DNA of 32,000 nucleotides, taken from Acaryochloris thomasi RCC1774. GTDB lineage: Bacteria; Cyanobacteriota; Cyanobacteriia; Thermosynechococcales; Thermosynechococcaceae. The notes under the pieces are model-generated. The model saw nothing but the letters and a program-made list of their open reading frames with translations. It searched no databases and was not told the DNA's origin. The translations under genes were made by a program, and so were the position numbers. Shown here one piece after another: positions 3,138 through 31,863 of this stretch (position 1 is its first letter; each line of letters starts with the position of its first letter). Where the stretch lies: positions 22,320 to 54,319 of the forward strand of contig NZ_PQWO01000025.1 of the NCBI RefSeq assembly GCF_003231495.1, read 5' to 3'.

Positions 3138-3164
3138 CTTCACAAGTTCCTCAAGTTATCGGTT
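3138..3164 (+). promoter_or_regulatory. recurrent intergenic box, copy A (upstream of the N-ATPase operon)
   Basis: CTTCACAAGTTCCTCAAGTTATCGGTT. The core TCACAAGTTCCTCAA is identical to copy C. It ends 77 nt before ATG 3231. Confidence 0.4.
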
Positions 3165-3176: not shown

Positions 3177-4664
<1,488 letters not shown>

Positions 4665-4733
4665 CGAGTTATGAGTTTTGAAGGATGAGTTTCGAGTTAG
4701 GACTATCTTCATCTCTGAAATTTTTGTGAAATC

Positions 4734-5111: not shown

Positions 5112-5123
5112 GGAGTGGCATTG

Positions 5124-7660: not shown

Positions 7661-7943
7661 TATTGCCTTAATCGGGATGGCTTCGATTGTGATGTCAGGA
7701 TTCACTATAGCCATTGGTTCCATTGGTCCTGCCTTGGGAGAGGGGCGAGCGTTATCCCAAGCGCTCAGCGCCATTGCTCAACAGCCCGATGAAGCTAATA
7801 CCATCACGCGGGTGCTGTTTGTCGGCATGGCGCTGGTGGAATCAACAGCCATTTACTGCTTTGTAATTACGCTAATTTTGATTTTTGCCAATCCCTTTTG
7901 GGCCTACGTCGTAGAGCAGGCCATTACGGCGGGGGGAGGGTAG
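7653..7943 (+). CDS. atpE: N-type F-ATPase subunit c (Na+-type ion-site signature)
   Basis: Hairpin of two TM helices with an RQPD/E-type loop (AQQPDE). Helix 2 reads LVESTAIY and helix 1 reads GPALGEG. The track start at 7641 is GTG; ATG 7653 follows GAGGAAA and overlaps the atpB stop by 8 nt. Confidence 0.9.
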   Translation: MDNIALIGMASIVMSGFTIAIGSIGPALGEGRALSQALSAIAQQPDEANTITRVLFVGMALVESTAIYCFVITLILIFANPFWAYVVEQAITAGGG

Positions 7944-7946
7944 GAA

Positions 7947-8735: not shown

Positions 8736-8738
8736 ATA

Positions 8739-10271: not shown

Positions 10272-10286
10272 AGGGGAGTAGGAACT

Positions 10287-11162
10287 ATGAAAACCGCCGA
10301 AGCCCTGAAGCGTCAAATCGCCAGCACCCAAGAGTTGCAAACTGTTGCTAAGACCATGAAAGCGCTTGCTGCTGTCAATATTCGCCAGTATGAACAGGCA
10401 GCTATCGCCCTGAAGCAATATAGCCATACGCTCAGAATGGGACGGCAGATTTTTCTGATTAACTACCCTGAAGCCTTAGCTGAGTTACGGCCATCGGTTC
10501 ACCGTCGTCTAGGGGCGGTCATTTTTGGCTCAGATCAGGGGATGTGTGGTCGCTTCAATGAACAGTTAGCTCAATATGTCATTCATGAGTTGAATCGAAT
10601 TTCTTCACAGATGAAGGAGCCGCTTTTGTTGGGGATGGGATCACGGGTTTGCGATCGCATCCAAGAACAAGGCTTCCCTATCGAACGATGTCTATCTGTC
10701 CCCGCTTCCGTAGAGGGGATTACGGCTAAGATACAAACCATTGTTCTGCAGCTCGAACAGTGGCGAACCGCACAACAGGTAGATCAAATTTGGGTGTTCC
10801 ATAACCGAGCCGCGAAAGGCGCAACCTCTACCCCTCGCCAACGGCAGATTTTTCCACTCTCGATTCGAGGATCGCAGCGTCCCTGGTCCTCTCGCTGTCG
10901 TCCAATGGTGTCTCAAAGTCGAGAGCAGCTTTTCTCGGCGTTATTTCGGCAGCACTTCTTTGTCACCCTTTACCGTGCCTGTGCTGAATCGCTTGCCAGC
11001 GAAAATGCTAGTCGCCTCACATCAATGCAGTTAGCTCAGAACAATATTACAGAGCATCTCACTGAGCTGCAGGCCATCTTTCAGCAACAACGTCAGACCA
11101 AGATTACTGAAGAATTGCTCGATATTGTGTCCGGTTTTGAAGCTCTGAACCGACCACATTAA
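10287..11162 (+). CDS. atpG: N-type F-ATPase gamma subunit
   Basis: N-terminal helix (IASTQELQTVAKTMKALAAVNIRQYE) and C-terminal helix (ASENASRLTSMQLAQNNI...ITEELLDIVSG) typical of gamma. A GGGGAG SD lies upstream. Last gene of the operon. Confidence 0.88.
   Translation: MKTAEALKRQIASTQELQTVAKTMKALAAVNIRQYEQAAIALKQYSHTLRMGRQIFLINYPEALAELRPSVHRRLGAVIFGSDQGMCGRFNEQLAQYVIHELNRISSQMKEPLLLGMGSRVCDRIQEQGFPIERCLSVPASVEGITAKIQTIVLQLEQWRTAQQVDQIWVFHNRAAKGATSTPRQRQIFPLSIRGSQRPWSSRCRPMVSQSREQLFSALFRQHFFVTLYRACAESLASENASRLTSMQLAQNNITEHLTELQAIFQQQRQTKITEELLDIVSGFEALNRPH
10651..10658. repeat. HIP1 octamer GCGATCGC
   Basis: Perfect match read directly. Confidence 0.95.
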
Positions 11163-12450: not shown

Positions 12451-12545
12451 TGTCTCATCTCCTTTCGCAGAGTACATTGAGTCTCTACCTTGACTGTAGG
12501 CTGATCATCTGAGGACTTTATGAAGGCTATTCAGGCTTGATGCTC

Positions 12546-12561
12546 CTCACAAGATCCTCAA
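12546..12561 (+). promoter_or_regulatory. recurrent intergenic box, copy B (divergent region between the DUF4278-like gene and the hybrid response regulator)
   Basis: CTCACAAGATCCTCAA, about 147 nt upstream of GTG 12708. Confidence 0.35.
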
Positions 12562-12707
12562 CTTCCTGGCTTATTTTGAAATCTACCTGATGACCAAGCC
12601 ATGAAAGACCAAGATTTAAGGATCTCTGGACTGTTGGTAAAACGTTTTATGGGTAATCTGAAAGATCAAGCTTGAATCTATTACCCCAGCAGCGATGGAG
12701 ACCTCCT

Positions 12708-15056: not shown

Positions 15057-15060
15057 TGAG

Positions 15061-17604
15061 ATGGCTGCTTCTATTTCACTTAACCTCCAGGAAGCGGTCT
15101 TGGAAACCATGGATGCCTTGCTTGTGGTTTTAGATCGGCAAGGACGGATTGTTCAATTCAATCGGGCCTGCGAGAAAACAACGGGCTATTCCTTTGTTGA
15201 GGTGGAAGGTAAAGCCGTTTGGGATGTGCTGTTAGTTCCTGAAGAACGTGAGTCGGTCAAAGCCGTCTTTACAGAGCTGGAAAACAAGAAATATGCTAGC
15301 CGAAATGAGAATTATTGGGTGAGTAAAACGGGGCAGCGGCATTTGATTGCCTGGTCAAATACGATGTTGCTTGACACGCAAAACGATGTGGAATATATCA
15401 TTGGGACCGGCATTGATATTACCGAACGTCGTCAAAGTGAAATCGCCCTTCAACAGCAGGTCAGGTATGAACAACTTTTAAGTGAGATTGCAGCACATAT
15501 CCGTCAGTCCCTGGACTTGAATGAAGTTCTCAACACGACCGTCACTGAGGTGCAGCGGGTCTTAGACACAGATCGCGTCTTGATTTTTCGGTTTGAGCCT
15601 AATTGGAACGGCAAGGTTCTCGTTGAGTCCCTGGGGTCGCAGACTTGGATGTCAGCGCTAGGGATGCAAATTCATGATCCTTGCTTTGCCAAAACCTACG
15701 TTGAACCCTATCGAAAGGGACGAATTTTCAGTATTGAAGACATTCATCAGGCTGGTTTGTCTCCCTGCCTGGTGGAGCTACTCGATCAGTTTCAAGTCCA
15801 GGCCAACCTTGTCGTTCCGATTCTGCAAGGGGATCAGCTCTGGGGGCTGTTGGTTGCTCACCATTGTTCTTCTCCCCGACAGTGGCAGCAGCAAGATATT
15901 AACCTGCTCACTCGACTGGCGACTCAACTTGCGATCGCAATCCAGCAGTCTGAACTCTACCAACAACTGCAGACTGAGCTGACCGAACGTGAGCAAGTGG
16001 AAGTCGTTCTTCAGGAAGCTCGTAAAAATCTCGAAAGCAAAGTCACAGAACGCACCACCGAACTGATCAGCGTCAATCAGCAGCTCAACCTAGAACTCAT
16101 AGAGCGTCGCGAAGCCGAAAAAGCGCTGCAGGTCTCCCAAGACCGCTTTGCAGGCATTCTCGAAATTGCTGATGATGCCATCATTTCCATTGATGCTGAG
16201 CAAAATATTACCCTTTTCAACCAAGGCGCTGAGCGAACGTTTGGCTATGCCGCAATCGATATCCTCGGTCAGTCCCTCGATCTGCTGCTGCCCTTCCAGT
16301 CGGCTCAGAACCATCGTCAGCAGGTTGAGAAGTATAGTCTGTCTTCCCAGCCATCCCGAGAAATGGGGGAGCGACGGGAAGTCTATGGTCGTCGCCAGGA
16401 CGGTAGCGAGTTCCCTGCTGAAGCCTCAATTTCTAAACTTGAACTGGAATCAGAAACGATTTACACCGTTATCCTGCGCGATATTTCGCAGCGGAAGCAG
16501 GACCAGGAAAATCTAGAGCAGTTGAGTCATCAAAATGAACTCATTCTTAATGCCATTGATGAAGGACTTTGCGGCTTGAACCGGCAGGGCCAGTTCACCT
16601 TCGTCAATGCCGCCGCAGAACGCTACCTAGGATACGCTGCTGCTAACTTGATTGATCAGCCCATTGAGCGGTTGTTACCCGACACCCATGTACCGGATGC
16701 TTTAGCTTCGGTTTATGCCTCAATGAAAACGGGAACCATTGAGACCATCCAGAACGCAACCTTTTGCCATAAAAATCAGTCCTGTTTCCCTGTAGAGTAC
16801 CTCGCGACCCCCATTCAGGAACGAGGAGAGATTGTCGGCGCTGTGATCACCTTTAGAGATATTAGCGATCGTCAGGTGATGGAGCGATTGAAGGATGAGT
16901 TTATCTCTATCGTCAGTCACGAGCTGCGTACCCCCCTGACCTCCATTCACGGTTCACTGCAGATGATGGCGAGCGGGATGCTCAGTACTCAACCGGAGAA
17001 GAGTCAGCGGTTGCTCAAGATTGCAGCAGAAAGCACCAATCGTTTGGTGCGATTGATTAACGACATCCTTGACGTGGAACGGATCGAGTCAGGACATGTG
17101 AGAATGGCTTTCCAGATCTATAATGCTGCCGAGTTGATGACTCAAGCCGCCAACACTATGCAAGGGATGGCTGACAGCATGGGTATTTCCTTGTCTGTGA
17201 CTCCTCTGACGGTTGATCTTTGGGCCGACCCAGACCGCATTCTGCAAACCTTCACGAACTTACTGAGTAACGCCATCAAATTTTCAGAGGCGGGGAGTAC
17301 CGTTTGGCTAAACGCCAAGCGTATAGAACCGCAACGAGCGGGCGATCAATCTTGGGTTCGCTTCAGTGTTAAAGATCAGGGCCGAGGGATTCCCGAAGAC
17401 AAAATAGACCTAGTTTTTGAACGGTTTCAGCAGGCCGATTCCTCAGACACCCGTAACTACGAAGGGACAGGTTTAGGTTTAGCAATCTGCCGCAGTGTTG
17501 TGCAGCAACACTGCGGGCAAATCTGGGTCGAGAGTCAGTTTGGGCAAGGCAGCACCTTCTACTTTACGATTCCTGAGTCTTCTTCAGCGTCAGTGAGTGA
17601 GTGA
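15061..17604 (+). CDS. sensor histidine kinase: PAS - GAF (phytochrome/CBCR-like) - coiled coil - PAS - PAS - HisKA - HATPase_c
   Basis: H-box SHELRTPLTSI, N-box LLSNAIKFS, G1 DQGRGI, G2 GTGLGL. The GAF domain has DRVLIFRF...LWGLLVAHHC. A GGGAGG SD lies upstream, 4 nt after the stop of the preceding gene. Confidence 0.92.
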   Translation: MAASISLNLQEAVLETMDALLVVLDRQGRIVQFNRACEKTTGYSFVEVEGKAVWDVLLVPEERESVKAVFTELENKKYASRNENYWVSKTGQRHLIAWSNTMLLDTQNDVEYIIGTGIDITERRQSEIALQQQVRYEQLLSEIAAHIRQSLDLNEVLNTTVTEVQRVLDTDRVLIFRFEPNWNGKVLVESLGSQTWMSALGMQIHDPCFAKTYVEPYRKGRIFSIEDIHQAGLSPCLVELLDQFQVQANLVVPILQGDQLWGLLVAHHCSSPRQWQQQDINLLTRLATQLAIAIQQSELYQQLQTELTEREQVEVVLQEARKNLESKVTERTTELISVNQQLNLELIERREAEKALQVSQDRFAGILEIADDAIISIDAEQNITLFNQGAERTFGYAAIDILGQSLDLLLPFQSAQNHRQQVEKYSLSSQPSREMGERREVYGRRQDGSEFPAEASISKLELESETIYTVILRDISQRKQDQENLEQLSHQNELILNAIDEGLCGLNRQGQFTFVNAAAERYLGYAAANLIDQPIERLLPDTHVPDALASVYASMKTGTIETIQNATFCHKNQSCFPVEYLATPIQERGEIVGAVITFRDISDRQVMERLKDEFISIVSHELRTPLTSIHGSLQMMASGMLSTQPEKSQRLLKIAAESTNRLVRLINDILDVERIESGHVRMAFQIYNAAELMTQAANTMQGMADSMGISLSVTPLTVDLWADPDRILQTFTNLLSNAIKFSEAGSTVWLNAKRIEPQRAGDQSWVRFSVKDQGRGIPEDKIDLVFERFQQADSSDTRNYEGTGLGLAICRSVVQQHCGQIWVESQFGQGSTFYFTIPESSSASVSE
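15931..15938. repeat. HIP1 octamer GCGATCGC
   Basis: Perfect match read directly. Confidence 0.95.
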
Positions 17605-17608
17605 TTCC

Positions 17609-17989
17609 ATGTCTACCAAACGAGTCCTGGTGATTGATGACGAACGCTATATCCAAGAGATCATCCAAATTGCTCTTGAAACAATTAGTGGCTGGCAAGT
17701 GGTGACAGCCAACTCTGGCTTAGAAGGGTTAGACATGGCTGAGCAAAAACAGCCCGACGCCATTCTTTTGGATGTGATGATGCCTGACATAGATGGGTTA
17801 ACCACATTTAAGAAGCTACAGGCGAATCCAGCTACACAGTCTATCCCTGTTATTTTACTGACGGCAAAGGTTCAGGCCGCCGATCAAGGGCGGTATCAGG
17901 ACTTGGGAGTGAAGGCCACAATCTCTAAACCCTTCGACCCTCTGCAGTTGCCGGACCAGATATCTACACTGCTGGATTGGACTGCATAG
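17609..17989 (+). CDS. single-domain (CheY-like) response regulator
   Basis: VLVIDDE, phospho-acceptor ILLDVMMPDIDG, LLTAK and SKPF motifs. Start is either ATG 17609 (4 nt after the kinase stop) or GTG 17597 (8 nt overlap). Confidence 0.9.
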   Translation: MSTKRVLVIDDERYIQEIIQIALETISGWQVVTANSGLEGLDMAEQKQPDAILLDVMMPDIDGLTTFKKLQANPATQSIPVILLTAKVQAADQGRYQDLGVKATISKPFDPLQLPDQISTLLDWTA

Positions 17990-18080: not shown

Positions 18081-18210
18081 GTCTCTCCTGTATCCGTGAG
18101 GAGCTGGCTTCAGGCAAGATGTGAAGGACTGCAGAAGCGCTCAATCGCCAATGGAGCAAGTCGCAGTGATATCTCTACTGACTTCAAAGACCGCAAGTTA
18201 TTCGGGTGGA

Positions 18211-18438
18211 ATGAAGCAAGCTACGAAAACAGTGTGTCGCTATATCAACCATACACGGCAGTTTCAGATTGTCCGAATTGCAAATGTCTCTGACACCTTT
18301 TTTGAGCGGACTGTCTTGCCTGGACATCAAGTTGTATTCGAAGCTGACTTTGATGCTGAACTAGAGGTTCATACCTATGAGATCGCAACGGCTATTTTGA
18401 CGGCGAGAATTAGTTGCGATCGCTTAGCGTCGATCTAA
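18211..18438 (+). CDS. DUF1830-like small cyanobacterial protein
   Basis: CRYINHTRQFQIVRIANVSDTFFERTVLPGHQVVFEA...LEVHT matches the DUF1830 pattern (C-Y-x-N...FERVV-PG) as I recall it. ATG 18211 is preferred over the GTG at 18121. Confidence 0.75.
   Translation: MKQATKTVCRYINHTRQFQIVRIANVSDTFFERTVLPGHQVVFEADFDAELEVHTYEIATAILTARISCDRLASI
18416..18423. repeat. HIP1 octamer GCGATCGC
   Basis: Perfect match read directly. Confidence 0.95.
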
Positions 18439-18651: not shown

Positions 18652-18900
18652 ATGTTTTTGTTTCGCTCTAGCAAAAAAGATACGCTCTGGTGGCTGGAAA
18701 TTGAAACCCAAACGCCCAAATGCACTTACTATTTCGGCCCCTTCGACAGTGCAAAGGAAGCTAGGCATCATAGAGCTGGGTACGTCGATGACTTACGAAA
18801 TGAACAGGCTGTAGGACTCGTGACAAAAATCAAGAGATGGCAAACCGAAACATTGACCATCTTTGATGAAGAGAAATTAACGCTAAAACCTCATCTATAG
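18652..18900 (+). CDS. DUF1816-like small cyanobacterial protein
   Basis: WWLEIETQTPKCTYYFGPFDSAKEA...GYVDDL matches the DUF1816 signature (WW-x-I...P-C-TYYFGPF) as I recall it. Confidence 0.75.
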   Translation: MFLFRSSKKDTLWWLEIETQTPKCTYYFGPFDSAKEARHHRAGYVDDLRNEQAVGLVTKIKRWQTETLTIFDEEKLTLKPHL

Positions 18901-19071: not shown

Positions 19072-19087
19072 CTCACAAGTTCCTCAA
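19072..19087 (+). promoter_or_regulatory. recurrent intergenic box, copy C (upstream of ppsA-usp-hoxEF)
   Basis: CTCACAAGTTCCTCAA, 85 nt upstream of ATG 19172. Confidence 0.4.
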
Positions 19088-19171
19088 TTTAGTGGCCTAC
19101 AACAAAAGTAGATGGAGTTAAGTAGAACTCTCCATCTCTGACAGGACCTAATTGATAGAGGAACCTAGATC

Positions 19172-21628
19172 ATGGCGCAAGCAACTCAACAATTCCAGCA
19201 GACCCAAAGCTCTAAAACCCATGAACTATTGATGTGGTTTGATGAAGTCGGAATTGATGACGTTCCTCTCGTGGGAGGAAAGAATGCATCTCTCGGTGAG
19301 ATGATTCAGCAGCTTTCTCAGAAAGGTATAAAAGTTCCCGCAGGATTTGCCACAACAGCCTTTGCTTATCGGTCCTTCATTCAGCTGGCAGGGCTAGAGC
19401 CTCAACTGCGTGAGATATTCGCCGATCTTGATGTCGAAAATGTTAGGAGTCTGAGAAGAGCGGGGCAACAGGCTCGAACGCTCATTCTGAATACGCCTTT
19501 CCCTGAGGATTTGAAAGGGGTCATTACTCAGGCTTACTTAGCATTATGCGATCGCTGTGCCACAGGGCCTTATCTGAACGACGAGCTAGATGTCGCGGTG
19601 CGGTCTAGCGCCACGGCAGAAGATCTCCCCGACGCTAGTTTTGCCGGTCAACAGGAAACCTATCTCAACGTGCATGGCATTCATGGCGTCCTGGAAGCCT
19701 GCCATAAATGTTTTGCTTCTCTCTTCACTGATCGTGCCATCTCATACCGAACTACTAAAGGGTTTGACCACTTCAGCATTGCGCTCTCGGTAGGGGTGCA
19801 GCAGATGGTCCGCTCTGACCTCGCCACCGCTGGTGTGATGTTCTCTATCGATACCGAAACAGGGTTCAAGAATGCCGCTTTGATCACTGCAGCCTATGGT
19901 CTGGGGGAAAACGTCGTTCAAGGATCCGTCAACCCTGATGAGTATCTGGTGTTCAAGCCAACGCTGCTGAAGGGCTGCCAGCCCATCCTTGATAAGCGAT
20001 TGGGTAGCAAAGAAATCAAGATGGTCTACGACCTAGAGGGCAGTAAGCTCACTAAAAACGTGCTAGTTCCCGAGCATGATCGTCAAAACTTTGCCCTCAC
20101 CAACGATGAGATCCTCACCCTAGCCCGATGGGCTTGCATCATTGAAGATCATTACTCTGCTGTCCGGGGCGTCGATACCCCAATGGATATTGAGTGGGCA
20201 CAGGATGGTCACACTGGTGAACTATTCATCGTCCAAGCGCGACCGGAAACGGTGCAGTCTCAGAAGGCTGAGCATCTTTTAACTACCTATCGCTTGCTAG
20301 ATTCTGACGAGGTATTGGTCCAGGGTCGAGCTGTCGGAGCCAGAATCGGCGAAGGCAAAGTGCGGGTGATTGCCGATGCCAGCCAGATCGGTTTATTCAA
20401 GCCCGGGGAAGTTTTGGTGACTTCCCGAACTGATCCAGATTGGGAGCCGATTATGAAGCAGGCCGCTGCCATTGTTACCGATCAGGGGGGCCGTACCTGC
20501 CACGCTGCGATCATTGCCCGTGAGCTGGGCATTCCAGCCATTGTGGGCTGTAACCATGCGACCACAAAACTGTCTACGGGGCAGGTGGTCACGGTCTCCT
20601 GTGCTGAAGGTGAAGGCGGCAATGTCTATGCAGGGCAGTTGTCCTTTGAGAAGCAGGAAACACCGCTGGCCGATTTGCCCCGCACCCGGACTCAAATCTT
20701 GATGAATATAGCCAATCCGGAAACTGCCTTTGGGTTAGCGTCTATTCCCTGTGATGGCGTGGGTTTGGCCCGTCTAGAATTCATTATTGCCAATCAGATT
20801 AAGGTGCATCCGCTGGCATTGATTCACTTTGATCAGCTAGAGGATCCGCTGGTGAAGGATGAGATCGCAACCCTAACCACCCACTATCCCTACAAACCCG
20901 ACTTCTTCATGGATAAGCTGGCCCACGGCATCGGCACCATTGCGGCAGCCTTCTATCCGAAGCCCGTGATCGTGCGAATGTCGGATTTCAAAAGCAACGA
21001 GTACGCCAATCTTTTGGGCGGACAGCCGTTTGAGCCGCACGAAGAGAATCCCATGCTGGGCTGGCGAGGGGCCTCTCGATACTACGAAGGATCGTATCGG
21101 GACGCCTTTGAGCTAGAGTGCAGAGCCATCCGGCGTGTACGAGAGGACATGGGACTCACCAATGTAATTCCAATGATTCCGTTCTGTCGTACCCCAGATG
21201 AAGGCCAAAAAGTTCTCGAAGAAATGGCTCGGCACGGTCTCCAACGAGGTCAAGATGGCCTCCAGGTTTATGTGATGTGTGAGGTGCCCACTAACGTTAT
21301 TTTGGCTGACCAGTTTAGCGACATCTTTGATGGCTTCTCCATTGGCTCCAATGACCTGACCCAGCTCACCCTGGGACTTGATCGGGATTCGAGTTTAGTG
21401 GCCCGTCTTTTTGACGAACGCAATGAGGCCGTCAAAGAAATGATCCGTCAGGTGATTGCCAAGGCAAAAGCTAAGGGCCGCAAAGTGGGTATCTGTGGCC
21501 AAGCGCCCAGTGACTACCCAGAATTTGCTCAGTTCTTAGTGGAGCAGGGCATTGACTCCCTCAGTCTCAATGCTGATTCGGTCCTCAAAACCTTACTTGC
21601 TGTTGCAGAAGCAGAGGGACACCAGTGA
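19172..21628 (+). CDS. ppsA: phosphoenolpyruvate synthase (pyruvate, water dikinase)
   Basis: 818 aa. N-terminal ATP-grasp part (VGGKNASLGEM), phospho-His swivel domain (GGRTCHAAIIARELGIPA), and C-terminal PEP-utilising TIM barrel (GSNDLTQLTLG..., CGQAPSD). Confidence 0.93.
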   Translation: MAQATQQFQQTQSSKTHELLMWFDEVGIDDVPLVGGKNASLGEMIQQLSQKGIKVPAGFATTAFAYRSFIQLAGLEPQLREIFADLDVENVRSLRRAGQQARTLILNTPFPEDLKGVITQAYLALCDRCATGPYLNDELDVAVRSSATAEDLPDASFAGQQETYLNVHGIHGVLEACHKCFASLFTDRAISYRTTKGFDHFSIALSVGVQQMVRSDLATAGVMFSIDTETGFKNAALITAAYGLGENVVQGSVNPDEYLVFKPTLLKGCQPILDKRLGSKEIKMVYDLEGSKLTKNVLVPEHDRQNFALTNDEILTLARWACIIEDHYSAVRGVDTPMDIEWAQDGHTGELFIVQARPETVQSQKAEHLLTTYRLLDSDEVLVQGRAVGARIGEGKVRVIADASQIGLFKPGEVLVTSRTDPDWEPIMKQAAAIVTDQGGRTCHAAIIARELGIPAIVGCNHATTKLSTGQVVTVSCAEGEGGNVYAGQLSFEKQETPLADLPRTRTQILMNIANPETAFGLASIPCDGVGLARLEFIIANQIKVHPLALIHFDQLEDPLVKDEIATLTTHYPYKPDFFMDKLAHGIGTIAAAFYPKPVIVRMSDFKSNEYANLLGGQPFEPHEENPMLGWRGASRYYEGSYRDAFELECRAIRRVREDMGLTNVIPMIPFCRTPDEGQKVLEEMARHGLQRGQDGLQVYVMCEVPTNVILADQFSDIFDGFSIGSNDLTQLTLGLDRDSSLVARLFDERNEAVKEMIRQVIAKAKAKGRKVGICGQAPSDYPEFAQFLVEQGIDSLSLNADSVLKTLLAVAEAEGHQ
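19548..19555. repeat. HIP1 octamer GCGATCGC
   Basis: Perfect match read directly. Confidence 0.95.
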
Positions 21629-21686: not shown

Positions 21687-22247
21687 ATGTTTCACAAAAT
21701 TTTAGTTGCGATGGATAGCTCTAAAACAGGCGACGAGATCTTTGACTATGCTCTAGCGTTAGCCCAACCTCTTAAAGCCGATCTAATGTTGCTACATGTG
21801 TTGTCGAGTGACGAGGTCGGTGCCCCAGATATGCCGCTAGCTCTTCCTGGCCCCTACTACTATCCAGGACTTTCAGATCTTCCCCTTCAGACCTATCGAG
21901 AAACTTGGGAGAAACTGGAAGCCCAGGGGATAGGACGTCTTCAGAGCTGTGAAAAGCAGGCCAAGCTGCATGGCGTATCGACAGAATATACACAAACCTC
22001 TGGCAGTCCTGGACGAACTATTTGCGACTTAGCCCAAAACTGGGGAGCCGATCTCATTCTGATGGGGTGTCGTGGGCGGGCAGGATTAAGTCAACTCATC
22101 CTCGGTAGTGTGAGTAATTACGTGATGCACCATGCCCCCTGCTCTGTTGTAGTTGTCAAGGCACCCGTTCATACTTTTTCACCGTTAGATCATACTCCTG
22201 AAACCTCTGTACATCTGACTGAATCTCGATTAGCGGGGTGGCAATAA
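21687..22247 (+). CDS. universal stress protein (UspA family), paralog 1 of 5
   Basis: MFHKILVAMDSS start and C-terminal GCRGRAGLSQLILGSVSNYVMHHAPCSVVVV (ATP motif G-2x-G-9x-G-S intact). ATG 21687 has a GGAGG SD. The longer track ORF from 21552 overlaps ppsA and is rejected. Confidence 0.88.
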   Translation: MFHKILVAMDSSKTGDEIFDYALALAQPLKADLMLLHVLSSDEVGAPDMPLALPGPYYYPGLSDLPLQTYRETWEKLEAQGIGRLQSCEKQAKLHGVSTEYTQTSGSPGRTICDLAQNWGADLILMGCRGRAGLSQLILGSVSNYVMHHAPCSVVVVKAPVHTFSPLDHTPETSVHLTESRLAGWQ

Positions 22248-22771
22248 TGTATCAAACTATTCTGGCCGCAGTGGACTTATCAGAATTGAGCTTGGCGGTG
22301 TTTAAGCAAGCGCTCCAGCTCACTAAGTTCTGTGGCGCAAAGCTCATCCTGCTTCATGTTTTGTCCAGTGACGAAGAAGGTTTTCCGATCCTGGCGACCT
22401 TTCCTTATGATCACTTCGAACCAACCTTAGCAGAAGGCTATCTCGAAAGTTGGCGACAGCTTGAGCAGAAGGGACTGCAACATTTGAAAACCTTCGCAGA
22501 TCATGCTCAGCAAGAGGGAATAAAGATAGAGACCCTGCAGATGGCCGGTAATCCAGGACAAATCATTCGGGATCTGGCTCGTGACAGAGCAGTGAATTTA
22601 ATCATGATGGGCAACCGTGGTCGCTCCGGTCTGTCAGAACTCTTGCTAGGGAGTCAGAGCAACTATGTGATGCACCATGCTCCCTGTTCAGTGCAAGTGG
22701 TCAAGGTTCCTGTTCCTAAACTTGAACCACTTGTGGCTACAGCGAATCTTACTAAGAGTACAGGTAATTAG
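22247..22771 (+). CDS. universal stress protein, paralog 2 of 5
   Basis: MYQTILAAVD... [28 protein letters not shown]. The start ATG shares one base with the TAA stop of paralog 1 (TAATG). Confidence 0.88.
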   Translation: MYQTILAAVDLSELSLAVFKQALQLTKFCGAKLILLHVLSSDEEGFPILATFPYDHFEPTLAEGYLESWRQLEQKGLQHLKTFADHAQQEGIKIETLQMAGNPGQIIRDLARDRAVNLIMMGNRGRSGLSELLLGSQSNYVMHHAPCSVQVVKVPVPKLEPLVATANLTKSTGN

Positions 22772-22780
22772 GAGGTCATT

Positions 22781-23278
22781 ATGTATAAGAGCATTCTTGT
22801 TGCAATGGATGTTTTTGACTCAAGAACAACTGTCTTTGAGGAGGCACTTAAACTTGCCAGACTCAGTGGAGCCAAACTCGTATTACTGCATGCTCTTTCA
22901 AACGATGAAGTCGGTTATCCTAATGTGCCTCCTCTCGGCATTGATGAAGCCTACTATGAGCGCTGGCGCAGCTTTGTTAAGGAGGGATTGCTACACCTCA
23001 ATCGGTTCAAAGAGCAAGCTGAGACCGAAGACGTTGAGGCCGAGATGCTTCAGGAAATTGGTCGCCCAGGGCATGTGATTTGTGCTGTTGCCCAAGAACA
23101 GAACGTTGACCTAATCATCATTGGGAATCGTGGTCGCTCTGGTCTTTCGGAAGCTGTGCTGGGTAGCCAGAGTAATTACGTGATGCACCATGCCCCCTGT
23201 TCCGTCTTAGTTCATCGCTTAACGGAGGATCGTTCTCAGTCAAGTGATGACAAAGCACCTTTAGCTGAATCTGTGTGA
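22781..23278 (+). CDS. universal stress protein, paralog 3 of 5
   Basis: MYKSILVAMD... [28 protein letters not shown]. An AGGAGG SD lies upstream, with a 9-nt gap after paralog 2. Confidence 0.88.
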   Translation: MYKSILVAMDVFDSRTTVFEEALKLARLSGAKLVLLHALSNDEVGYPNVPPLGIDEAYYERWRSFVKEGLLHLNRFKEQAETEDVEAEMLQEIGRPGHVICAVAQEQNVDLIIIGNRGRSGLSEAVLGSQSNYVMHHAPCSVLVHRLTEDRSQSSDDKAPLAESV

Positions 23279-23291
23279 TCAGGAGGTTCTG

Positions 23292-23825
23292 ATGTTTAAC
23301 AAAATTCTAGTGGCATTAGATTACTCAGCATCCTGTGAACAAGTCTTTGAGCAGGGTTTGACCTTAGCAAAGATGATGCATGCACAGCTCATGTTGGTGC
23401 ATGTGGTTACCCCTCTAGAGGAAACATATCCGATCTCTACTCTCATGCCCAGTCTGTTAGATGACCCGGTAACCTCCCGCTTCGAAATCGCAAATGCCTA
23501 TATTAGAGAGCTTGAGGCTTTCGAGATGAAGGGGCTTGAGATGTTAAAGTCGCACGCTAATATCGCCACTGAGCAGGGGCTACAAGCAGGAGTTCAACAA
23601 CCCTCAGGGTATCCAGCTCGTAGCCTCTGTGATGTTGCTCGAACCTGGAATGCCGACGTGATTGTTATGGGGCGGCGGAGCCAAAACGTCTTGAGAAAAG
23701 CTTTGCTAGGCAGCATCAGCAACTACGTTACCCACCATGCACCCTGTTCCGTACTGATTGTTCATAACCAGGACAGTCCTGAATCGACTGTGCAACAGGA
23801 GACTGCTGACACCGCCAAGCCTTAA
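23292..23825 (+). CDS. universal stress protein, paralog 4 of 5 (degenerate nucleotide-binding motif)
   Basis: MFNKILVALD... GRRSQNVLRKALLGSISNYVTHHAPCSV. The second Gly of G-2x-G-9x-G(S/T) is replaced by Ser. An AGGAGG SD lies upstream. Confidence 0.85.
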   Translation: MFNKILVALDYSASCEQVFEQGLTLAKMMHAQLMLVHVVTPLEETYPISTLMPSLLDDPVTSRFEIANAYIRELEAFEMKGLEMLKSHANIATEQGLQAGVQQPSGYPARSLCDVARTWNADVIVMGRRSQNVLRKALLGSISNYVTHHAPCSVLIVHNQDSPESTVQQETADTAKP

Positions 23826-23849
23826 GTCTGAATCGTCAAGGTGAAAATC

Positions 23850-24377
23850 ATGTATCACAAAATTTTAGTCGCGATTGATGAAGCCACCATTAACCAAAAT
23901 ATTTTTAATGCAGCGCTGGCACTCGCGAAGACAATACCTGATGTCAAGCTTGTGCTCCTGCACGTTTTGTCTCCTGATCTGGTTAAAGTCCCGGCTCATG
24001 TCTCTGTCCCTGGTCCGTTCCAGCAGCCCAATCTAGACCCGTACCCCAGCCTGCGAGAGGATCTGTTGTTCAGTCACCAGCGACAGTGGAATGCCTATGA
24101 CAGTGATTGTCTTTCTCAACTGCGGTCCTATACAGCAGAGGCCATCAAAGCAGGGGTTACCACTGAATTTATGCAGCAACCGGGTGTTCCGGGGCCTGTG
24201 ATCTGTGATCTGGCGAAAGCTCTACCAGCGGATCTGATTTTAATCGGGAACCGAGGTCGTTCAGGTCTCAAAGAAGTTCTGCTCGGCAGTGTCAGCAGAT
24301 ATGTTTCAGACCATGCCCCCTGCTCCGTTATGGTCATTCGTGCTCAACCCAAGCCCCATGTCGCTGATGAAGCTTGA
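23850..24377 (+). CDS. universal stress protein, paralog 5 of 5
   Basis: [10 protein letters not shown]... [31 protein letters not shown] 23850 (the track start is GTG 23841). The 3' end overlaps the hoxE start. Confidence 0.88.
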
Positions 24378-24900
24378 GCAAAGGATTCAAACAAGCAGGT
24401 CAAACCATCCTAGTGGTGATAAGCGTTTTAAAGTGCTAGAGGCCACCATGAAGCGGCATCAGTATCAACCTGACGCCCTAATTGAGGTTCTCCATAAAGC
24501 GCAGGAACTCTTTGGCTATCTAGAGCTAGATTTACTGCTGCACATTGCCCATAGCCTCAAGCTCCCCCCGAGCCACGTCTATGGTGTAGCGACCTTTTAT
24601 CACTTCTTTGCGCTCAAGCCTGCTGGGGCACATACCTGCGTTATTTGTATGGGCACTGCCTGCTATGTCAAAGGAGCCGCATCTCTTCTGAGCACCGTAG
24701 AACAGATGGCCCAAATTCAGGCTGGAGAAACTACCGCAGATGGTCAGCTTTCTCTCAGCACAGCCCGCTGCTTAGGGGCCTGTGGGAGCGCCCCCGCTGT
24801 CGTAATCGATGGCGATGTGATGGGGTATCAAACCCCAGAGACCCTGGGCGCACTACTCACTATCCACGTTCAGTCCCCAGGTGAGGAGGAGGCACAATAA
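24358..24900 (+). CDS. hoxE: bidirectional [NiFe]-hydrogenase diaphorase subunit HoxE (NuoE-like, [2Fe-2S])
   Basis: [33 protein letters not shown] and the thioredoxin-like 2Fe-2S cysteines (CVICMGTAC ... CLGACGSAP). The start is uncertain: ATG 24358 or 24367, with earlier in-frame ATGs at 24289, 24301 and 24313. All of them overlap usp5. Confidence 0.88.
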
Positions 24901-26583
24901 ATGGATTTAAATGAGCTGCAGACCTTGACGAAGCAGGAAAAAAAGATCCTTGATACACCCTGCATTTGCTGCTGCACCGTGGGAGGCTGCCTCTCTACCA
25001 ATGCCCTTGAGGTTAAGAAACAACTGGAAAGCGAAATCGCAACCCAAAATCTCAAAGACCAGCTCAGCATCCGAGGCGTCGGCTGCATGGGCCTCTGCAG
25101 CCAAGGTCCCCTCGTCCGCCTAGACCCCGAAGGCATCCTCTACGATCACGTCACCCCTGACCAAGCCCCCCAACTCATCCAGGCCGCCCTCCACGCCACC
25201 TCTCCTCCCCATTCAAAACTCAAAACTTCTCCTACGAAGACGCTTCGCGAACAAAACTCAAAACCCAAAGCTCCCTCTCCCTACCAACCCCAACACCATC
25301 CCTTTTTCACCCACCAGCGCCCCATCGTCCTCGAAAACAGTGGTCGCATTAACCCAGAAAAAATCAAGGAATACATTGCCAATCGAGGATACTTCGCTCT
25401 CTACCGCGCCCTCTATGAGATGACGCCCGGCGAGGTGATCGATCAAATCACCCAAAGTGGCCTTCGGGGCCGAGGCGGAGGCGGCTACCCCACAGGCTTA
25501 AAGTGGTCCACCGTCGCCAAGATGCCAACCGGGCAAAAATACGTTATCTGTAATGGAGATGAAGGCGATCCAGGTGCTTTTATGGACCGCAGTGTCTTAG
25601 AAAGCGATCCGCATCGGGTGTTGGAAGGAATGGCGATCTCAGCCTATGCCGTGGGAGCTAACCAAGGCTACATCTACGTGCGCGGCGAGTATCCCCTTGC
25701 GATCAGTCATCTCCAGACTGCTATTCGTCAGGCCCGGCAGAAGGGACTATTGGGCAGTCAAATCTTCGAGTCTCCCTTTGACTTTCGGGTCGATATTCGC
25801 ATCGGTGCTGGAGCCTTTGTCTGTGGCGAAGAAACGGCCCTGATGGCCTCAATTGAAGGCAAGCGTGGTCTACCTCGCCCCCGTCCTCCCTATCCAGCCG
25901 AGTCAGGTCTGTGGGGATGTCCAACCCTAATAAACAATGTCGAAACCTTTGCCAACGTTGCCCCCATCATTCGCAAAGGTGCTGATTGGTTTGCGGGGAT
26001 TGGGACTGAGAACAGTAAGGGTACTAAGGTGTTTTCCCTGGCCGGAAAGATCAAAAATACTGGGTTAATTGAAGTCCCAATGGGCACTCCTCTGCGCCAG
26101 ATTGTTGAACAGATGGGGGGCGGTGTTCCCGATGGAGCGGTAAAAGCCGTACAAACGGGTGGTCCCTCTGGGGGCTGCATTCCCGCCGATGCCTTTGATA
26201 CGCTTGTGGACTATGAATCTTTAAAAGCTCTGGGGTCGATTATGGGGTCCGGCGGCATGATTGTCATGGATCAATCCACCAACATGGTGGACGTGGCCCG
26301 GTTCTTTATGGAGTTCTGTATGGATGAGTCCTGTGGCAAGTGCATTCCCTGTCGAGCCGGAACCGTGCAGCTTTATCAGTTGCTCACCAAGATCAGTGAA
26401 GGTAAAGCGCAGCAGGGGGATCTAGCTCAGCTTGAAGATCTTTGCGATGTAGTGAAACACACAAGCCTCTGCGGGCTGGGACAGTCAGCCCCTAATCCAG
26501 TTTTGAGTACATTACGATTTTTCAAAGATGAGTACTTAGCGCTCATGCAGGATGTCGTATCTGACCGTCAGAAGCCTCCGTAG
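24901..26583 (+). CDS. hoxF: bidirectional [NiFe]-hydrogenase diaphorase subunit HoxF (NuoF-like; FMN, NAD(P)H, Fe-S)
   Basis: N-terminal 2Fe-2S thioredoxin-like domain ([10 protein letters not shown]...[10 protein letters not shown]), FMN site [14 protein letters not shown] site [11 protein letters not shown], and 4Fe-4S ligands [10 protein letters not shown]...C. The ATG immediately follows the hoxE TAA. Confidence 0.93.
25211..25264. repeat. heptamer-family repeat segment inside hoxF: two CAAAACTCAAAAC copies flanking a small hairpin
   Basis: The 13-mers lie at 25214-25226 and 25252-25264. The 17-mer ATTCAAAACTCAAAACT at 25211-25227 is identical to 26641-26657. There is an internal CGAAG-ACG-CTTCG hairpin at 25235-25247. 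Confidence 0.85.
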
Positions 26584-26591: not shown

Positions 26592-26656
26592 GAGTTTTGA
26601 GTTTTAAGTTTTGAATTAATCTACTCATTCAAAACTCAACATTCAAAACTCAAAAC
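26592..26656 (+). terminator. long imperfect hairpin built from inverted TTTTGAG/CTCAAAA heptamer arrays, directly after the hoxF stop (putative terminator or RNA-stability element)
   Basis: AGTTTTGAAT (26607-26616) pairs perfectly with ATTCAAAACT (26627-26636) across a 10-nt loop. The outer GTTTTGAGTTTT pairs with AAAACTCAAAAC (26645-26656) across an internal bulge. No clean U-tract follows. Confidence 0.45.
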
Positions 26657-26671
26657 TGATTTAACTTTTCC

Positions 26672-27753: not shown

Positions 27754-27772
27754 AAGGCTCACAACATCCTCA
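27754..27772 (+). promoter_or_regulatory. recurrent intergenic box, copy D (upstream of the acidic protein-hpf pair)
   Basis: AAGGCTCACAACATCCTCA is a 19-nt exact match to copy E and is followed by a similar ATTGTC..GATA. It ends 52 nt before ATG 27824. Confidence 0.4.
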
Positions 27773-27823: not shown

Positions 27824-28273
27824 ATGACAGACGCAACCTTTTTCAACTTAGGTAGAGTCTCTCCAAGACAACAGAGTACCGCTTCTCAGCAAGGCTCTGA
27901 GAGTCAAGAGATCCTATGGTCCGATTTAGGCAACTTAGACCATGCTGACTCATCCACTGAGGCCCTCGCCGATCAAGAAATGGGAGCTGCTCCAGCTTTG
28001 AAGCGGCTACAGAAAACAATGGCGAGTACTGAGCTTACCGGCGGTGATCCTGATGATGATGCCTATCAAGCCTCGGTTGTTGGCGAAGAAGCTGTGGGTG
28101 GTCAGACGCCTACACCCGATCAGAATGTCACCGAAGAGTTGCAAAAGGCTGTAGGGATTGCCTCTATTGAGGGTGAGACTGTCCGCACAGCAGCAAAGTT
28201 AGAGTGGCGAGATCGACATCCCTGGGGATTGAATCCCGAGTCTGCTGAAGATTATCGGGAGCGACTTGAGTAG
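27824..28273 (+). CDS. conserved acidic cyanobacterial protein (resembles the family annotated DUF6335)
   Basis: LTGGDPDDDAYQASVVGEEAVGGQTPTPDQNVTEELQKAVGI ... RDRHPWGLNPESAEDY matches a conserved cyanobacterial pattern I recall (GGD-D...GEEAVGG...TPDQ(N/D)V(V/T)(D/E)E). The family name is from memory. Confidence 0.65.
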   Translation: MTDATFFNLGRVSPRQQSTASQQGSESQEILWSDLGNLDHADSSTEALADQEMGAAPALKRLQKTMASTELTGGDPDDDAYQASVVGEEAVGGQTPTPDQNVTEELQKAVGIASIEGETVRTAAKLEWRDRHPWGLNPESAEDYRERLE

Positions 28274-28335: not shown

Positions 28336-28938
28336 ATGAGACTCGTTATTCAAGGCAAAAATCTGGACATCACTGATGCCATCCATGATTATGTGCAACA
28401 AAAAATAGGTAAGGCAATGATGCATTTTGAGCATCTAACCACTAAAACAGATGTCAAGCTATCTGTTCCAAGTCAATCTAGGAAGCAGCCTCGACAAAAT
28501 GCAGAGGTAACTGTTTTTGCGAATGGCACCGTTATTCGGGCAGAAGAGAACCATGAGAACCTCTATGCCAGTATTGACTTAGTCGCTGATAAGCTTTCTC
28601 GTCAGCTACAGAAGTATAAAGGTAAAAAAGCGCAATTCTCTAAATCAAAGCGGCAGGTAGATGAAAGTCACGATCACCCCCTTGTGCCCGAAGAATTGAC
28701 TCAGGAACGCGCTCCAGAACTGCCTCAGACAGTGGTCCGAAATAAGTTCTTTGCGATGCCGTCAATGACAGCACAGGACGCATTAGAAAACTTGCAGCTT
28801 GTTGATCATGATTTTTATGTGTTCCGCAATGAATCAACTGAAGAGATCAACGTAATCTATGAGCGCAATCATGGCGGCTATGGCATCATTCAGCCTCGTG
28901 AAGAGAATAAAGCTGATCAGTCGTCAGTCTCCCATTAA
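28336..28938 (+). CDS. hpf: ribosome hibernation promoting factor, long form (LrtA-like)
   Basis: MRLVIQGKNLDITDAIHDYVQQKIGK N-terminal RaiA/HPF domain, plus a C-terminal dimerisation domain (FFAMPSMTAQDALENLQLVDHDFYVFRNESTEEINVIYERNHGGYGIIQP). A GAGGAGG SD lies upstream. Confidence 0.92.
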   Translation: MRLVIQGKNLDITDAIHDYVQQKIGKAMMHFEHLTTKTDVKLSVPSQSRKQPRQNAEVTVFANGTVIRAEENHENLYASIDLVADKLSRQLQKYKGKKAQFSKSKRQVDESHDHPLVPEELTQERAPELPQTVVRNKFFAMPSMTAQDALENLQLVDHDFYVFRNESTEEINVIYERNHGGYGIIQPREENKADQSSVSH

Positions 28939-29315: not shown

Positions 29316-29371
29316 ATATCGGGACAGTCCCCATCATTCTTCATATTGCTTAGAGCCTTTGATTTGTCTTG

Positions 29372-29755
29372 ATGCCTAAAACAGTTTTAGTTTGCCAGAA
29401 CACGACCTGTTACCAGCAAGGCTCTGCGAACGTGCTGACTGAGTTTCTATCCGGCGCTCCGTCTGGCATTACAGTGGAGTCTTCTGGTTGCTTGGGGCAG
29501 TGTGGGAGTGGTCCGATGGTACTCATTTTGCCGGAAGAGACATGGTATAGCCACGTCCAGCCCCGTGACGCGGCTGTGATTGCGGAGCAGCACCTCAACG
29601 CAGGACGGATCGTCACTAAAAAGCTGTATCCACTTTTTCATCCTCCGCGCAGGCCCATTGGAATGTGGCTAGCCGCTGGCAGTTTCTTGCTAGGTTTTTC
29701 TCTCTTACTGATTTGGATGCTAACGACTCATGCTGCTCTGCTGTCTAGGAATTAG
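29372..29755 (+). CDS. thioredoxin-like [2Fe-2S] ferredoxin domain protein with a C-terminal transmembrane anchor
   Basis: VLVCQNTTCYQQG (C-x4-C) and SGCLGQCGSGPMV (C-x3-C) give the same ligand pattern as NuoE/HoxE. The C-terminal hydrophobic helix is IGMWLAAGSFLLGFSLLLIWML. I use ATG 29372; the track start is TTG 29369. Confidence 0.8.
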   Translation: MPKTVLVCQNTTCYQQGSANVLTEFLSGAPSGITVESSGCLGQCGSGPMVLILPEETWYSHVQPRDAAVIAEQHLNAGRIVTKKLYPLFHPPRRPIGMWLAAGSFLLGFSLLLIWMLTTHAALLSRN

Positions 29756-30583: not shown

Positions 30584-30602
30584 AAGGCTCACAACATCCT
30601 CA
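30584..30602 (+). promoter_or_regulatory. recurrent intergenic box, copy E (upstream of the 58-aa ORF)
   Basis: AAGGCTCACAACATCCTCA, identical to copy D. It ends 104 nt before ATG 30706. Confidence 0.4.
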
Positions 30603-30960: not shown

Positions 30961-31863
30961 ATGGCCATAGCTCAAGATCGTCTTAAAGCCTATTTAGAGC
31001 TGATTCAAGTTTTACTAGCTTGCCCCTCGGGTGAAGAGTGGATTCTGTTAAGGCAGAATGAGCAATTTGTGAATGCAGAGTTCATTCAGGTGATGGAGCA
31101 AGTTGCGACTCAGATCGCGGCAGATGGTCACACCCAATCTGGAACGTTCCTGCATAATTTAGCGGCCCAACTACATCATATTTTGGTTAATGAGGTGACC
31201 CCGCCGCCCCCAAATGGTGGCCCCTCTCAGGTCTATCGAGAACTGATTCAATCGCTCATCGATCGCCCTGATGAGGCGGTCGATCTGTTGGCTGCCCACA
31301 ATGAACTGATTGGACCGGAGTTAGTCCATCAGCTTAAGCAAGAGGCAGCTCAGATGATGGGGCAAGGAGAGCAGGAAACGGCCCAGTTCTTAAAGACTCT
31401 GGCGGAAGAACTGAACCGAGCATGGCTTGAGGCTCATGCCTTTAAACCGCATAGTACGACCCACAAAGATAATCATAATCAGCCGGATAACCGCAAGGTG
31501 AAGCCGACTGTTGCAAACCCACGGTCTAAATCGGAGGAACCCCAACCCCCTGTGGCCCACACTGAGCAACCTCAGGGCCTAGAGGGGGTTGTCAATCAAC
31601 TAGGTGAGATTGCAACCTCCCTCGCCCAACTCAACGAACACCTAAAGGTTCAGCAGCAAGATCCGCTGTGGTATATGGACGCTCTAGAGAAAGCCGCCTC
31701 TTCTGATTGGCTGCTATCGACCACCGAAGTGGAACAACTGATCGGCGTCAAACCCCACTGCAAAGCAGACGGTATCTATCAACGGGGCCAATGGGTCTTT
31801 AACAAAGCAGGGAAGATTGGCACCCAAACCGCCTGGCAGGTGAGCAAGACCAGCATCAGCTAA
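30961..31863 (+). CDS. hypothetical protein (300 aa) with two N-terminal ~70-aa repeats and a Pro/Gln-rich linker
   Basis: Repeat 1 is YLELIQVLLACPSGEEWILLRQNEQFVNAEFIQVMEQVATQIAADG...FLHNLAAQL. Repeat 2 is YRELIQSLIDRPDEAVDLLAAHNELIGPELVHQLKQEAAQMMGQG...FLKTLAEEL. Such modules recall the N-termini of cyanobacterial CHAT/TPR proteins. Confidence 0.6.
   Translation: MAIAQDRLKAYLELIQVLLACPSGEEWILLRQNEQFVNAEFIQVMEQVATQIAADGHTQSGTFLHNLAAQLHHILVNEVTPPPPNGGPSQVYRELIQSLIDRPDEAVDLLAAHNELIGPELVHQLKQEAAQMMGQGEQETAQFLKTLAEELNRAWLEAHAFKPHSTTHKDNHNQPDNRKVKPTVANPRSKSEEPQPPVAHTEQPQGLEGVVNQLGEIATSLAQLNEHLKVQQQDPLWYMDALEKAASSDWLLSTTEVEQLIGVKPHCKADGIYQRGQWVFNKAGKIGTQTAWQVSKTSIS

Follow-up and report, generated by a model that had tools for sequence, protein, structure and literature searches.

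We analysed a 32,000-nucleotide (nt) stretch of the cyanobacterium Acaryochloris thomasi RCC1774 (NCBI RefSeq assembly GCF_003231495.1, contig NZ_PQWO01000025.1, positions 22,320 to 54,319 of the forward strand; hereafter the window, numbered from its first letter), in which five universal-stress-protein (USP) genes lie between ppsA, encoding phosphoenolpyruvate (PEP) synthase, and the hydrogenase diaphorase genes hoxE and hoxF. A sequence-only reading of the window had pointed to five consecutive USP genes of 165–186 aa with shared ends, and open reading frames (ORFs), Pfam and pairwise alignment confirm them, all on the + strand: usp1 (21687–22247, 186 aa), usp2 (22247–22771, 174 aa), usp3 (22781–23278, 165 aa), usp4 (23292–23825, 177 aa) and usp5 (23850–24377, 175 aa). 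All five products match Usp (PF00582) end to end, over model positions 1–139/141, at 102–125 bits (E 5e-36 to 6e-29; gathering cut-off 24 bits). They share 38–46% pairwise identity with conserved ends, and a repeat finder recovered the five-fold periodicity at the DNA level (family D1). Upstream, ppsA (19172–21628, + strand) encodes an 818-aa protein with PPDK_N, PEP-utilizers (mobile His) and PEP-utilizers_C domains (Pfam, E 1e-121 to 1e-28), and its orthologue on the Acaryochloris plasmid pREB4 is annotated ppsA. The spacing is also as first read: ppsA ends 58 nt before usp1, the usp2 start overlaps the usp1 stop (TAATG), and gaps of 9, 13 and 24 nt precede usp3, usp4 and usp5. The same reading gave the first four genes GGAGG or AGGAGG Shine-Dalgarno (SD) sequences, which holds for usp1 (GGAGGT) and usp3 (AGGAGG) but not for usp2 (GGGGTGG); usp5 has a weak AAGGTG. 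The usp1 GGAGGT and start codon are invariant across five loci.

A survey of usp arrays next to hoxE in other cyanobacteria, which that reading had suggested, was positive. A genome scan for HoxE gave 79 loci, nine of them cyanobacterial, which were searched with a hidden Markov model of the five USPs and by tblastn with the window proteins. The linkage recurs in L001, L017, L032 and Acaryochloris; look-ups of gene context added L081, L084 and L091, along with the arrays L082 and L092/93 described below. Locus L081 is collinear with the window, with an internally deleted ppsA, five usp genes, hoxEF, a solute-binding protein gene, DUF6335 and HPF. At least three usp genes and then hoxEF are present in L084. 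In the Thermosynechococcaceae metagenome-assembled genome (MAG) L001, orthologues of usp1, usp3 and usp5 are followed by hoxEF; the Leptolyngbyaceae MAG L017 has an N-type ATPase, a ppsA fragment, two usp genes and hoxEF; the Chroococcales MAG L032 has ppsA, usp, a small membrane ORF and hoxEFU; and L091 (“Cyanothece” SIO1E1) has ppsA, three usp1-like genes and hoxEF. Acaryochloris plasmids and MAGs (L002/L080, L003, L053) carry a two-domain USP, its halves orthologous to usp4 and usp5, directly before hoxE. A usp gene thus lies immediately upstream of hoxE in L001, L002/L080, L003, L053, L017, L081, L084 and L091, with one small gene between them in L032. On the other flank, ppsA or a remnant lies upstream of usp in the window, L032, L081, L082, L091, L092, L017 and L001, the last retaining only the final bases of ppsA ahead of usp1.

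Several arrays follow ppsA without hoxEF. Locus L082 has an intact ppsA, 92% identical to the window’s, and all five usp genes, and L092/93 has ppsA, usp1, a frameshifted usp2 and usp3 and lacks usp4, usp5 and hoxEF. The chromosomal ppsA of A. marina (AM1_1645) has a usp1-like gene (AM1_1646) as its downstream neighbour, and in the syntenic region of another Acaryochloris (L094) a usp1-like gene stands behind a decayed ppsA. The usp copy number varies among loci (1, 2, 3, 5 or fused). Two versions of the array, L082 (JAHLSW010057745.1, 5312–10528) and L081, come from the same assembly (GCA_020357715.1), from one or two genomes; the L082 version has an intact ppsA and lacks hoxEF, and the L081 version has a deleted ppsA and carries hoxEF. 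By this comparison the arrangement is clade-specific but robust, and either flank may disappear while the usp genes remain. A metagenome scan with the usp5 orthogroup alignment gave one locus, with a usp1-like gene at 49% identity, and exact-sequence look-ups with the window’s usp3 and usp5 gave no match. A general ppsA or hox linkage of the wider USP subfamily was rejected: three farther homologues (45–50% identity; Pleurocapsa, Oculatella and Nostoc) each stand alone in an unrelated neighbourhood, with neither ppsA nor hoxE adjoining. Outside the cyanobacteria, two Chloroflexota MAGs carry an unrelated USP gene divergently adjoining hoxE (L004, 9218–9643, and L005, 839–1264, both on the minus strand); their HoxE is cyanobacterial-like (73–77% identity). 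Five further non-cyanobacterial loci have a USP gene within 10 kb.

From the conserved ATG at 24367, which lies within GATGAAGCTTGA, hoxE (24367–24900, + strand) encodes 177 aa and overlaps the end of usp5 by 11 nt. This start and the overlap (ATGAAGCTTGA, spanning the usp5 stop codon) are common to four lineages: the window, L084, L001 and L081. HoxE read from here scores 267 bits against the equivalog model NF005747 (cut-off 224 bits), with residues 6–163 aligned to model positions 7–164, and is 81–92% identical to annotated HoxE proteins. The automatic gene call instead begins at ATG 24448, 70 nt past the usp5 stop, and gives a 150-aa HoxE (P0003); it removes the conserved N-terminal segment and hides the usp5 overlap. 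The sequence-only reading had placed every plausible hoxE start inside usp5. The conserved ATG is indeed there, but the claim was too strong because ATG 24448 lies beyond the usp5 stop. Position 24289, listed as an ATG, is a GTG. No SD sequence precedes the conserved start, as would be expected if its translation were coupled to that of usp5. Directly after the hoxE stop, hoxF (24901–26583, + strand) encodes a 560-aa protein with all four expected domains (Complex1_51K for FMN, SLBB, NADH_4Fe-4S and an N-terminal 2Fe-2S thioredoxin-like domain; Pfam). It scores 403 bits against the NuoF-type model PRK13596 (cut-off 389) and is 79–89% identical to the gene after hoxE in L001, L081, L084 and Acaryochloris. 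The hoxUYH genes are not within the window.

The proposal of a ppsA-usp1-5-hoxEF transcription unit is well supported by comparison. Its junctions measure 58, −1, 9, 13, 24, −11 and 0 nt, all on one strand, and a consensus promoter and terminator scan of the region saw no terminator-like structure in them. The ppsA-usp1 and usp4-usp5 spacers fold at shuffle level (z 0.14 and 1.0). After hoxF, by contrast, an AU-rich hairpin with 25-bp arms (26592–26651, + strand; inverted repeat I2) has a folding energy of −27.9 kcal/mol (z −3.87), matched by 0/200 shuffles, and is likely the 3′ end of the unit. Hairpins resembling it, GUUUUGAGU...ACUCAAAAC, follow hoxF in L081 and L084. Heptamer-like repeats AAAACTC/CAAAACT occur at 25205–25265, in the hoxF linker coding sequence, and at 26592–26657, in the hairpin arms. 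The 1-nt TAATG overlap of usp1 and usp2 is kept in L081, L082 and L092, and this overlap and that of usp5 and hoxE imply translational coupling. The scan, uninformative alone, gave promoter and terminator counts at shuffle level, with no site in any junction and no promoter-like site in usp5; no Rfam family was found in the window. In A. marina RNA-seq data, chromosomal ppsA AM1_1645 and usp AM1_1646 form contiguous transcription units with parallel counts (PMC5295598 supplement). From these features and the promoter-proximal motif described below, we infer that ppsA, usp1–5 and hoxEF are co-transcribed as a single operon.

The array is old and maintained, as the first reading held. Synonymous divergence (dS) among the paralogues has reached saturation, and the conserved C-terminal 45 codons are no exception (27–44% identity at third positions). 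Since dS is saturated in those very codons, the conserved ends reflect selection at the protein level and not gene conversion; recent amplification or gene conversion as the source of the shared ends is ruled out on the same ground. Ratios of nonsynonymous to synonymous divergence (dN/dS) are 0.07–0.30 for the orthologue pairs of all five genes (window against L081 and L082). Neighbour-joining trees resolve five orthogroups, each with bootstrap 100, and place usp2 as sister to usp3 (bootstrap 99–100). Orthologues of usp1 are present in L001, L081, L082 and L092, always adjoining ppsA or a ppsA remnant, and those of usp3 in L001, L081, L082, L084 and L092. Orthologues of usp5 show 73–86% identity; in L001, L081 and L084 they are the immediate upstream neighbour of hoxE, and in the Acaryochloris fusion they make up the C-terminal half. 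The L092 orthologue of usp2 (9094–9470) is a frameshifted, internally deleted pseudogene. By the tree, the three USPs of L091 are not one-to-one orthologues of usp2–5, and the size of that array may come from a separate expansion. The usp genes are five ancient, separately conserved orthogroups under purifying selection.

The five proteins differ at the nucleotide-binding motif. G-x2-G-x9-G-[ST] is intact in usp1 (GCRGRAGLSQLILGS), usp2, usp3 and usp5. In usp4 it is degenerate (GRRSQNVLRKALLGS, GRRSQN…): the second and third glycines are lost, the second replaced by Ser, and all 7/7 orthologues have the form GRR[SN][RQ][NDH], including the N-terminal half of the Acaryochloris fusion. By this motif usp4 is not to be classed with the ATP-binding USPs. 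Its AlphaFold model (predicted local distance difference test 83.5, predicted template modelling score 0.77) shows the USP fold, five strands alternating with helices; confidence is low in the motif loop. Its top 50 Foldseek matches in the PDB are all USPs, TeaD being the best (3hgm, E 9e-11). A profile of the five paralogues matches MJ0577 (1mjh, E 5e-17), TeaD and tandem USPs, and these matches to solved structures support the fold for the other four proteins. In three Acaryochloris genomes the usp4 and usp5 orthologues are fused into a single 357-aa polypeptide (WP_012167708.1), and by Rosetta-stone logic this fusion implies that usp4 and usp5 act as a pair. In the window the two are separate ORFs, divided by a stop codon and the 24-nt gap, and do not form a tandem-type USP. 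We propose a heterodimer of usp4, with its degenerate site, and usp5, with its competent one. The earlier suggestion that the five USPs could form heteromers gains independent support from the fusion for one pair, usp4/usp5.

A single sequence block links the operon to other genes of the region. The motif TCACAAGTTCCTCAA, followed after 10 nt by the −10-like hexamer TACAAC, lies at 19073–19103 (+ strand), about 70–100 nt upstream of the ppsA ATG, and is the sole strongly conserved block in an alignment of ppsA upstream regions (window, L082, L092/93). The exact 15-mer occurs twice in the window, and seven matches with up to three mismatches compare with 1.14 expected. Its second exact copy (3140–3154, +) precedes the N-type ATPase operon (atpD at 3207) by 53 nt. 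A copy with one mismatch (12547–12561, +) precedes a multi-REC/wHTH/Hpt/GGDEF response-regulator gene (12672–15056), and a weaker copy on the opposite strand (12510–12523, −) faces a DUF4278 gene. The variant TCACAACATCCTCA is found at 27759–27772 (+), upstream of DUF6335 (27824–28273) and HPF/LrtA (28336–28938), and at 30589–30602 (+), upstream of a 300-aa ORF of unknown function (30961–31863). Each copy in the window is followed by about 10 nt and a TAnnnY hexamer.

The same signal recurs in the relatives. In 1.44 Mb of fetched loci TCACAAnnTCCTCA has 27 exact matches, compared with a calculated expectation of about 0.2; all 27 are in cyanobacterial island loci, each oriented toward the downstream gene. 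It stands upstream of ppsA or its remnants in L001, L017, L081, L082, L091 and L092, with a one-mismatch copy in L094. At least four separate times ppsA was lost or fragmented while the motif and usp were kept (L081 841–1214, L001 ~5340–5360, L017 8554–8721, L094 7605–7979), leaving the motif upstream of the usp genes. Copies before DUF6335/HPF stand at the orthologous position in L081, L084 and L001, the 30589 copy is conserved in L081, and the divergent response-regulator/DUF4278 pair is also found in Acaryochloris. Plasmid pREB4 has a one-mismatch copy before its ATPase operon (L080, 2238) and a copy before hoxW-hypAB (L080, 35168, minus strand), and L017 has copies before hsp20-hoxUY and CBS-hoxH (12678 and 15833). 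No copy directly precedes the usp genes or hoxE, and no + strand copy lies between ppsA and hoxE; a motif found before ppsA or its remnants, and never before usp or hoxE, supports a single promoter for the unit. Its distribution also supports a putative regulon joining hox, hyp, the Na+-type ATPase and a ribosome hibernation factor. Because the motif precedes the response regulator’s own gene (12672–15056), that regulator is the obvious candidate for the motif-binding protein. Literature searches found no description of the motif sequence, only unrelated primers.

Beyond the operon, the window belongs to an island, which Acaryochloris carries on a plasmid (pREB4). The gene hypE (1993–3033; TIGR02124, 456 bits) lies immediately upstream of the operon for an N-type (Na+-translocating) F-ATPase (3207–11162; atpD, atpC, ..., a, b, alpha, gamma), which is collinear with pREB4 and has a Na+/H+ exchanger gene (5432–6661) embedded in it. 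The island also has DUF3122 and DUF4278 genes. Genes for the unusual regulator, which combines three REC domains with an OmpR-type wHTH, Hpt and GGDEF, for a PAS/GAF histidine kinase and for a single-domain receiver come one after another at 12672–17989. Just upstream of the ppsA promoter are genes for small DUF1830 (18121–18438) and DUF1816 (18652–18900) proteins, the latter at the same position in L092/L093. Farther downstream, a 128-aa ORF (29369–29755), partly kept in L081, has only the C-terminal half of a thioredoxin-like [2Fe-2S] ferredoxin domain (PF01257, E 2e-7). The pREB4 module shares with the window much of its order as well as ppsA, the N-type ATPase with its embedded cation/proton antiporter, DUF3122, DUF4278, the multi-domain response regulator, a USP, hoxEF, a solute-binding protein and hyp genes; the window differs in its five separate usp genes, in having ppsA immediately upstream and in the position of hoxUYH outside it.

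Published work gives this neighbourhood a physiological setting. In Acaryochloris the Na+-ATPase and hox genes co-vary completely, and a fermentative redox module was proposed (PMC8949462, PMC9324425), the plasmid module being assigned to fermentative redox balance plus the Na+-ATPase (PMC8949462); the term ‘universal stress’ is absent from the text of both papers. In Synechococcus 7002, ppsA is more than 100-fold higher in darkness, and hoxEFU is up in dark anoxia and under P limitation (PMC3323872). Our literature searches found no USP link to Hox or PpsA, in agreement with the first reading, which knew of no described link between USP arrays and the Hox diaphorase.

Several known systems resemble parts of the locus. 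TeaD of Halomonas elongata (teaABCD, 3hgm) is likewise a small USP of ATP-binding type, and its gene is part of the operon for the very system that TeaD modulates. There a single gene is attached to a transporter, whereas the window has five diverged paralogues, one with a degenerate site, flanked on one side by the gene of a metabolic enzyme and on the other by those of the hydrogenase diaphorase; the gene context is alike, and any regulatory effect of the window USPs is putative. Tandem USPs (M. tuberculosis Rv2623 of the hypoxia/DosR regulon, T. thermophilus TTHA0350, E. coli UspE), structures of which are among the profile and Foldseek matches, form a two-domain intramolecular pair as the Acaryochloris fusion does. 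In the window, however, the halves are separate genes, and the usp4 half lacks the G-x2-G-x9-G-S glycines in every orthologue. Rv2623 is tied to low-oxygen and low-energy states. The four window USPs with an intact motif resemble the MJ0577/UspFG ATP-binding class, but identity is low, none of the four reaches an NCBIfam equivalog, and they have an additional variable insertion of 30–40 residues and C-terminal tails. Finally, CBS-domain and CP12 proteins, of another fold and family, are small adenine-nucleotide- or redox-sensing domains found within cyanobacterial hox clusters, among them those of pREB4 and L017, and the CBS gene of L017 has the same motif upstream; we know of no proof of their role in Hox regulation. 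Operon-embedded USPs are already known; this locus has them as a five-member array with a degenerate/competent pair and a predicted translational coupling to hoxE.

We consider it probable that ppsA, usp1–5 and hoxEF form one co-regulated low-energy or fermentation operon within an island-wide regulon, with the USPs as nucleotide-sensing accessory proteins. A promoter made of TCACAAnnTCCTCA, 10 nt and TAnnnY would drive ppsA, then usp1–5, then hoxE-hoxF, up to the hairpin, as one unit. The same motif would drive the Na+-type ATPase operon, the response regulator and DUF6335-HPF, and in relatives hsp20-hoxUY, CBS-hoxH and hoxW-hypAB. The regulon is most likely activated when energy is low, in darkness or during fermentation, and we count the presence of HPF/LrtA in the same motif set for this low-energy logic. 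The stop/start overlaps at usp1/usp2 and usp5/hoxE would couple translation, the USPs would serve as adenine-nucleotide-sensing accessories produced at a constant ratio to PpsA and the HoxEF diaphorase, and usp4, its ATP motif lost, would work as a heterodimer with usp5, which has kept it. Co-regulation is a sufficient explanation of the arrangement because the neighbourhood belongs to a larger island and regulon that includes the Na+-type ATPase, HPF and hyp genes.

A number of observations weigh against this account. The loci with the arrangement all come from a restricted group of cyanobacterial relatives, which means that shared ancestry accounts for some of the conserved synteny; usp genes are absent from three other cyanobacterial hoxE loci (L024, L031, L035). 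On the Acaryochloris plasmid the USP and hoxE are 47 nt apart, ppsA lies at a distance of 15 kb, and the closest copy of the motif, with one mismatch, precedes a nitroreductase gene. The motif was not seen upstream of the N-ATPase operon of Synechococcus 7002 (plasmid pAQ7) and is therefore apparently clade-specific; its function and its binding protein are both putative. The inducing signal is uncertain because the A. marina chromosomal ppsA-usp pair was lower, not higher, under microoxic conditions in light (PMC5295598).

The array might instead serve hydrogenase directly. The USPs, especially usp4 and usp5, would then be dedicated HoxEF(U) partners that bind directly and gate electron flow by ATP/AMP, in line with the idea, raised in the sequence-only reading, that the array could tune a redox or fermentative module. 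The usp5 overlap with the hoxE start in four lineages speaks for this, as do the Acaryochloris plasmid fusion, which is immediately upstream of hoxE though ppsA is far off, the unrelated USP genes that divergently adjoin hoxE in L004 and L005, and the other nucleotide-binding regulators (CBS, CP12) inside hox clusters. Yet L082 has all five orthologues after ppsA and no hoxEF downstream, the decaying array of L092 keeps usp1–3 with ppsA only, and a usp1-like gene also follows the chromosomal ppsA of A. marina. Because arrays also occur with ppsA and without hoxEF, a dedicated USP-Hox diaphorase link is unproven. The three fetched cyanobacterial hoxE loci that carry no USP gene also count against it, and to our knowledge most Hox-bearing cyanobacteria have none at the hox locus. 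We regard direct partnership with Hox as unlikely.

The same loci that detach the array from hoxEF raise the converse option, that the USPs mainly serve PpsA, by AMP/ATP sensing around its ATP→AMP reaction or through co-expression, with hoxEF a secondary addition. Arrays with ppsA alone (L082, L092/93, the A. marina chromosome), the constant association of the usp1 orthogroup with ppsA or its remnant and the motif upstream of ppsA all fit. Service to PpsA is nonetheless doubtful: ppsA decayed repeatedly while usp persisted (L081, L001, L017, L094), so usp genes are retained without PpsA, and the Acaryochloris plasmid fusion stays with hoxE, not with ppsA.

Nor do we think it likely that hoxEF is expressed mainly from its own promoter inside the usp5 coding sequence, with usp and hoxEF regulated independently. 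In its favour, cyanobacteria often have promoters within coding sequence, the automatic call puts hoxE after the usp5 stop, and in Acaryochloris a 47-nt spacer lies between the USP gene and hoxE. Against this stand the consensus scan, in which usp5 has no promoter-like site and the region’s count is at shuffle level, the lack of a + strand island motif between ppsA and hoxE, and a conserved hoxE start within usp5 whose missing SD fits coupling.

A bolder form of the Hox hypothesis takes the USP4-USP5 heterodimer, one site dead and one live, for a true regulatory subunit of HoxEFU, translationally coupled with HoxE and gating electrons between NAD(P)H or ferredoxin and hydrogenase by adenylate charge. 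For PpsA, the remaining USPs would play the equivalent part, and the whole would be driven by the undescribed element TCACAAnnTCCTCA under the island’s multi-receiver OmpR-type regulator; this we hold to be distinctly improbable. Least probable of all, in our view, is that there is no specific coupling and that generic stress USPs, expanded in tandem within a horizontally mobile island, share the locus by linkage alone: Acaryochloris carries the island on plasmids and acquires or loses it as a unit (PMC8949462, PMC9324425), usp copy number varies, one copy is a pseudogene in L092 and USP paralogue families are common in cyanobacteria, but the five orthogroups are under purifying selection over saturated synonymous divergence, the stop/start overlaps, the fusion and the degenerate usp4 site are conserved, and the usp-hoxE adjacency outlasts nearby rearrangements and insertions, which makes pure hitch-hiking unlikely.

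The co-regulated operon that we favour bears on two open questions, the post-transcriptional control of the cyanobacterial bidirectional hydrogenase and the real roles of USPs. It offers handles on both: a conserved operon, the usp5-hoxE overlap, a fusion that predicts which USPs pair and a motif-defined regulon. The predictions are testable in Acaryochloris marina MBIC11017, which can be cultured and has the fused USP gene next to hoxE. The locus thereby gives a way to test whether the sensing of energy state is tied to fermentative hydrogen metabolism, and should the USPs prove to be simply co-expressed stress proteins, the operon and regulon annotation would still be useful.

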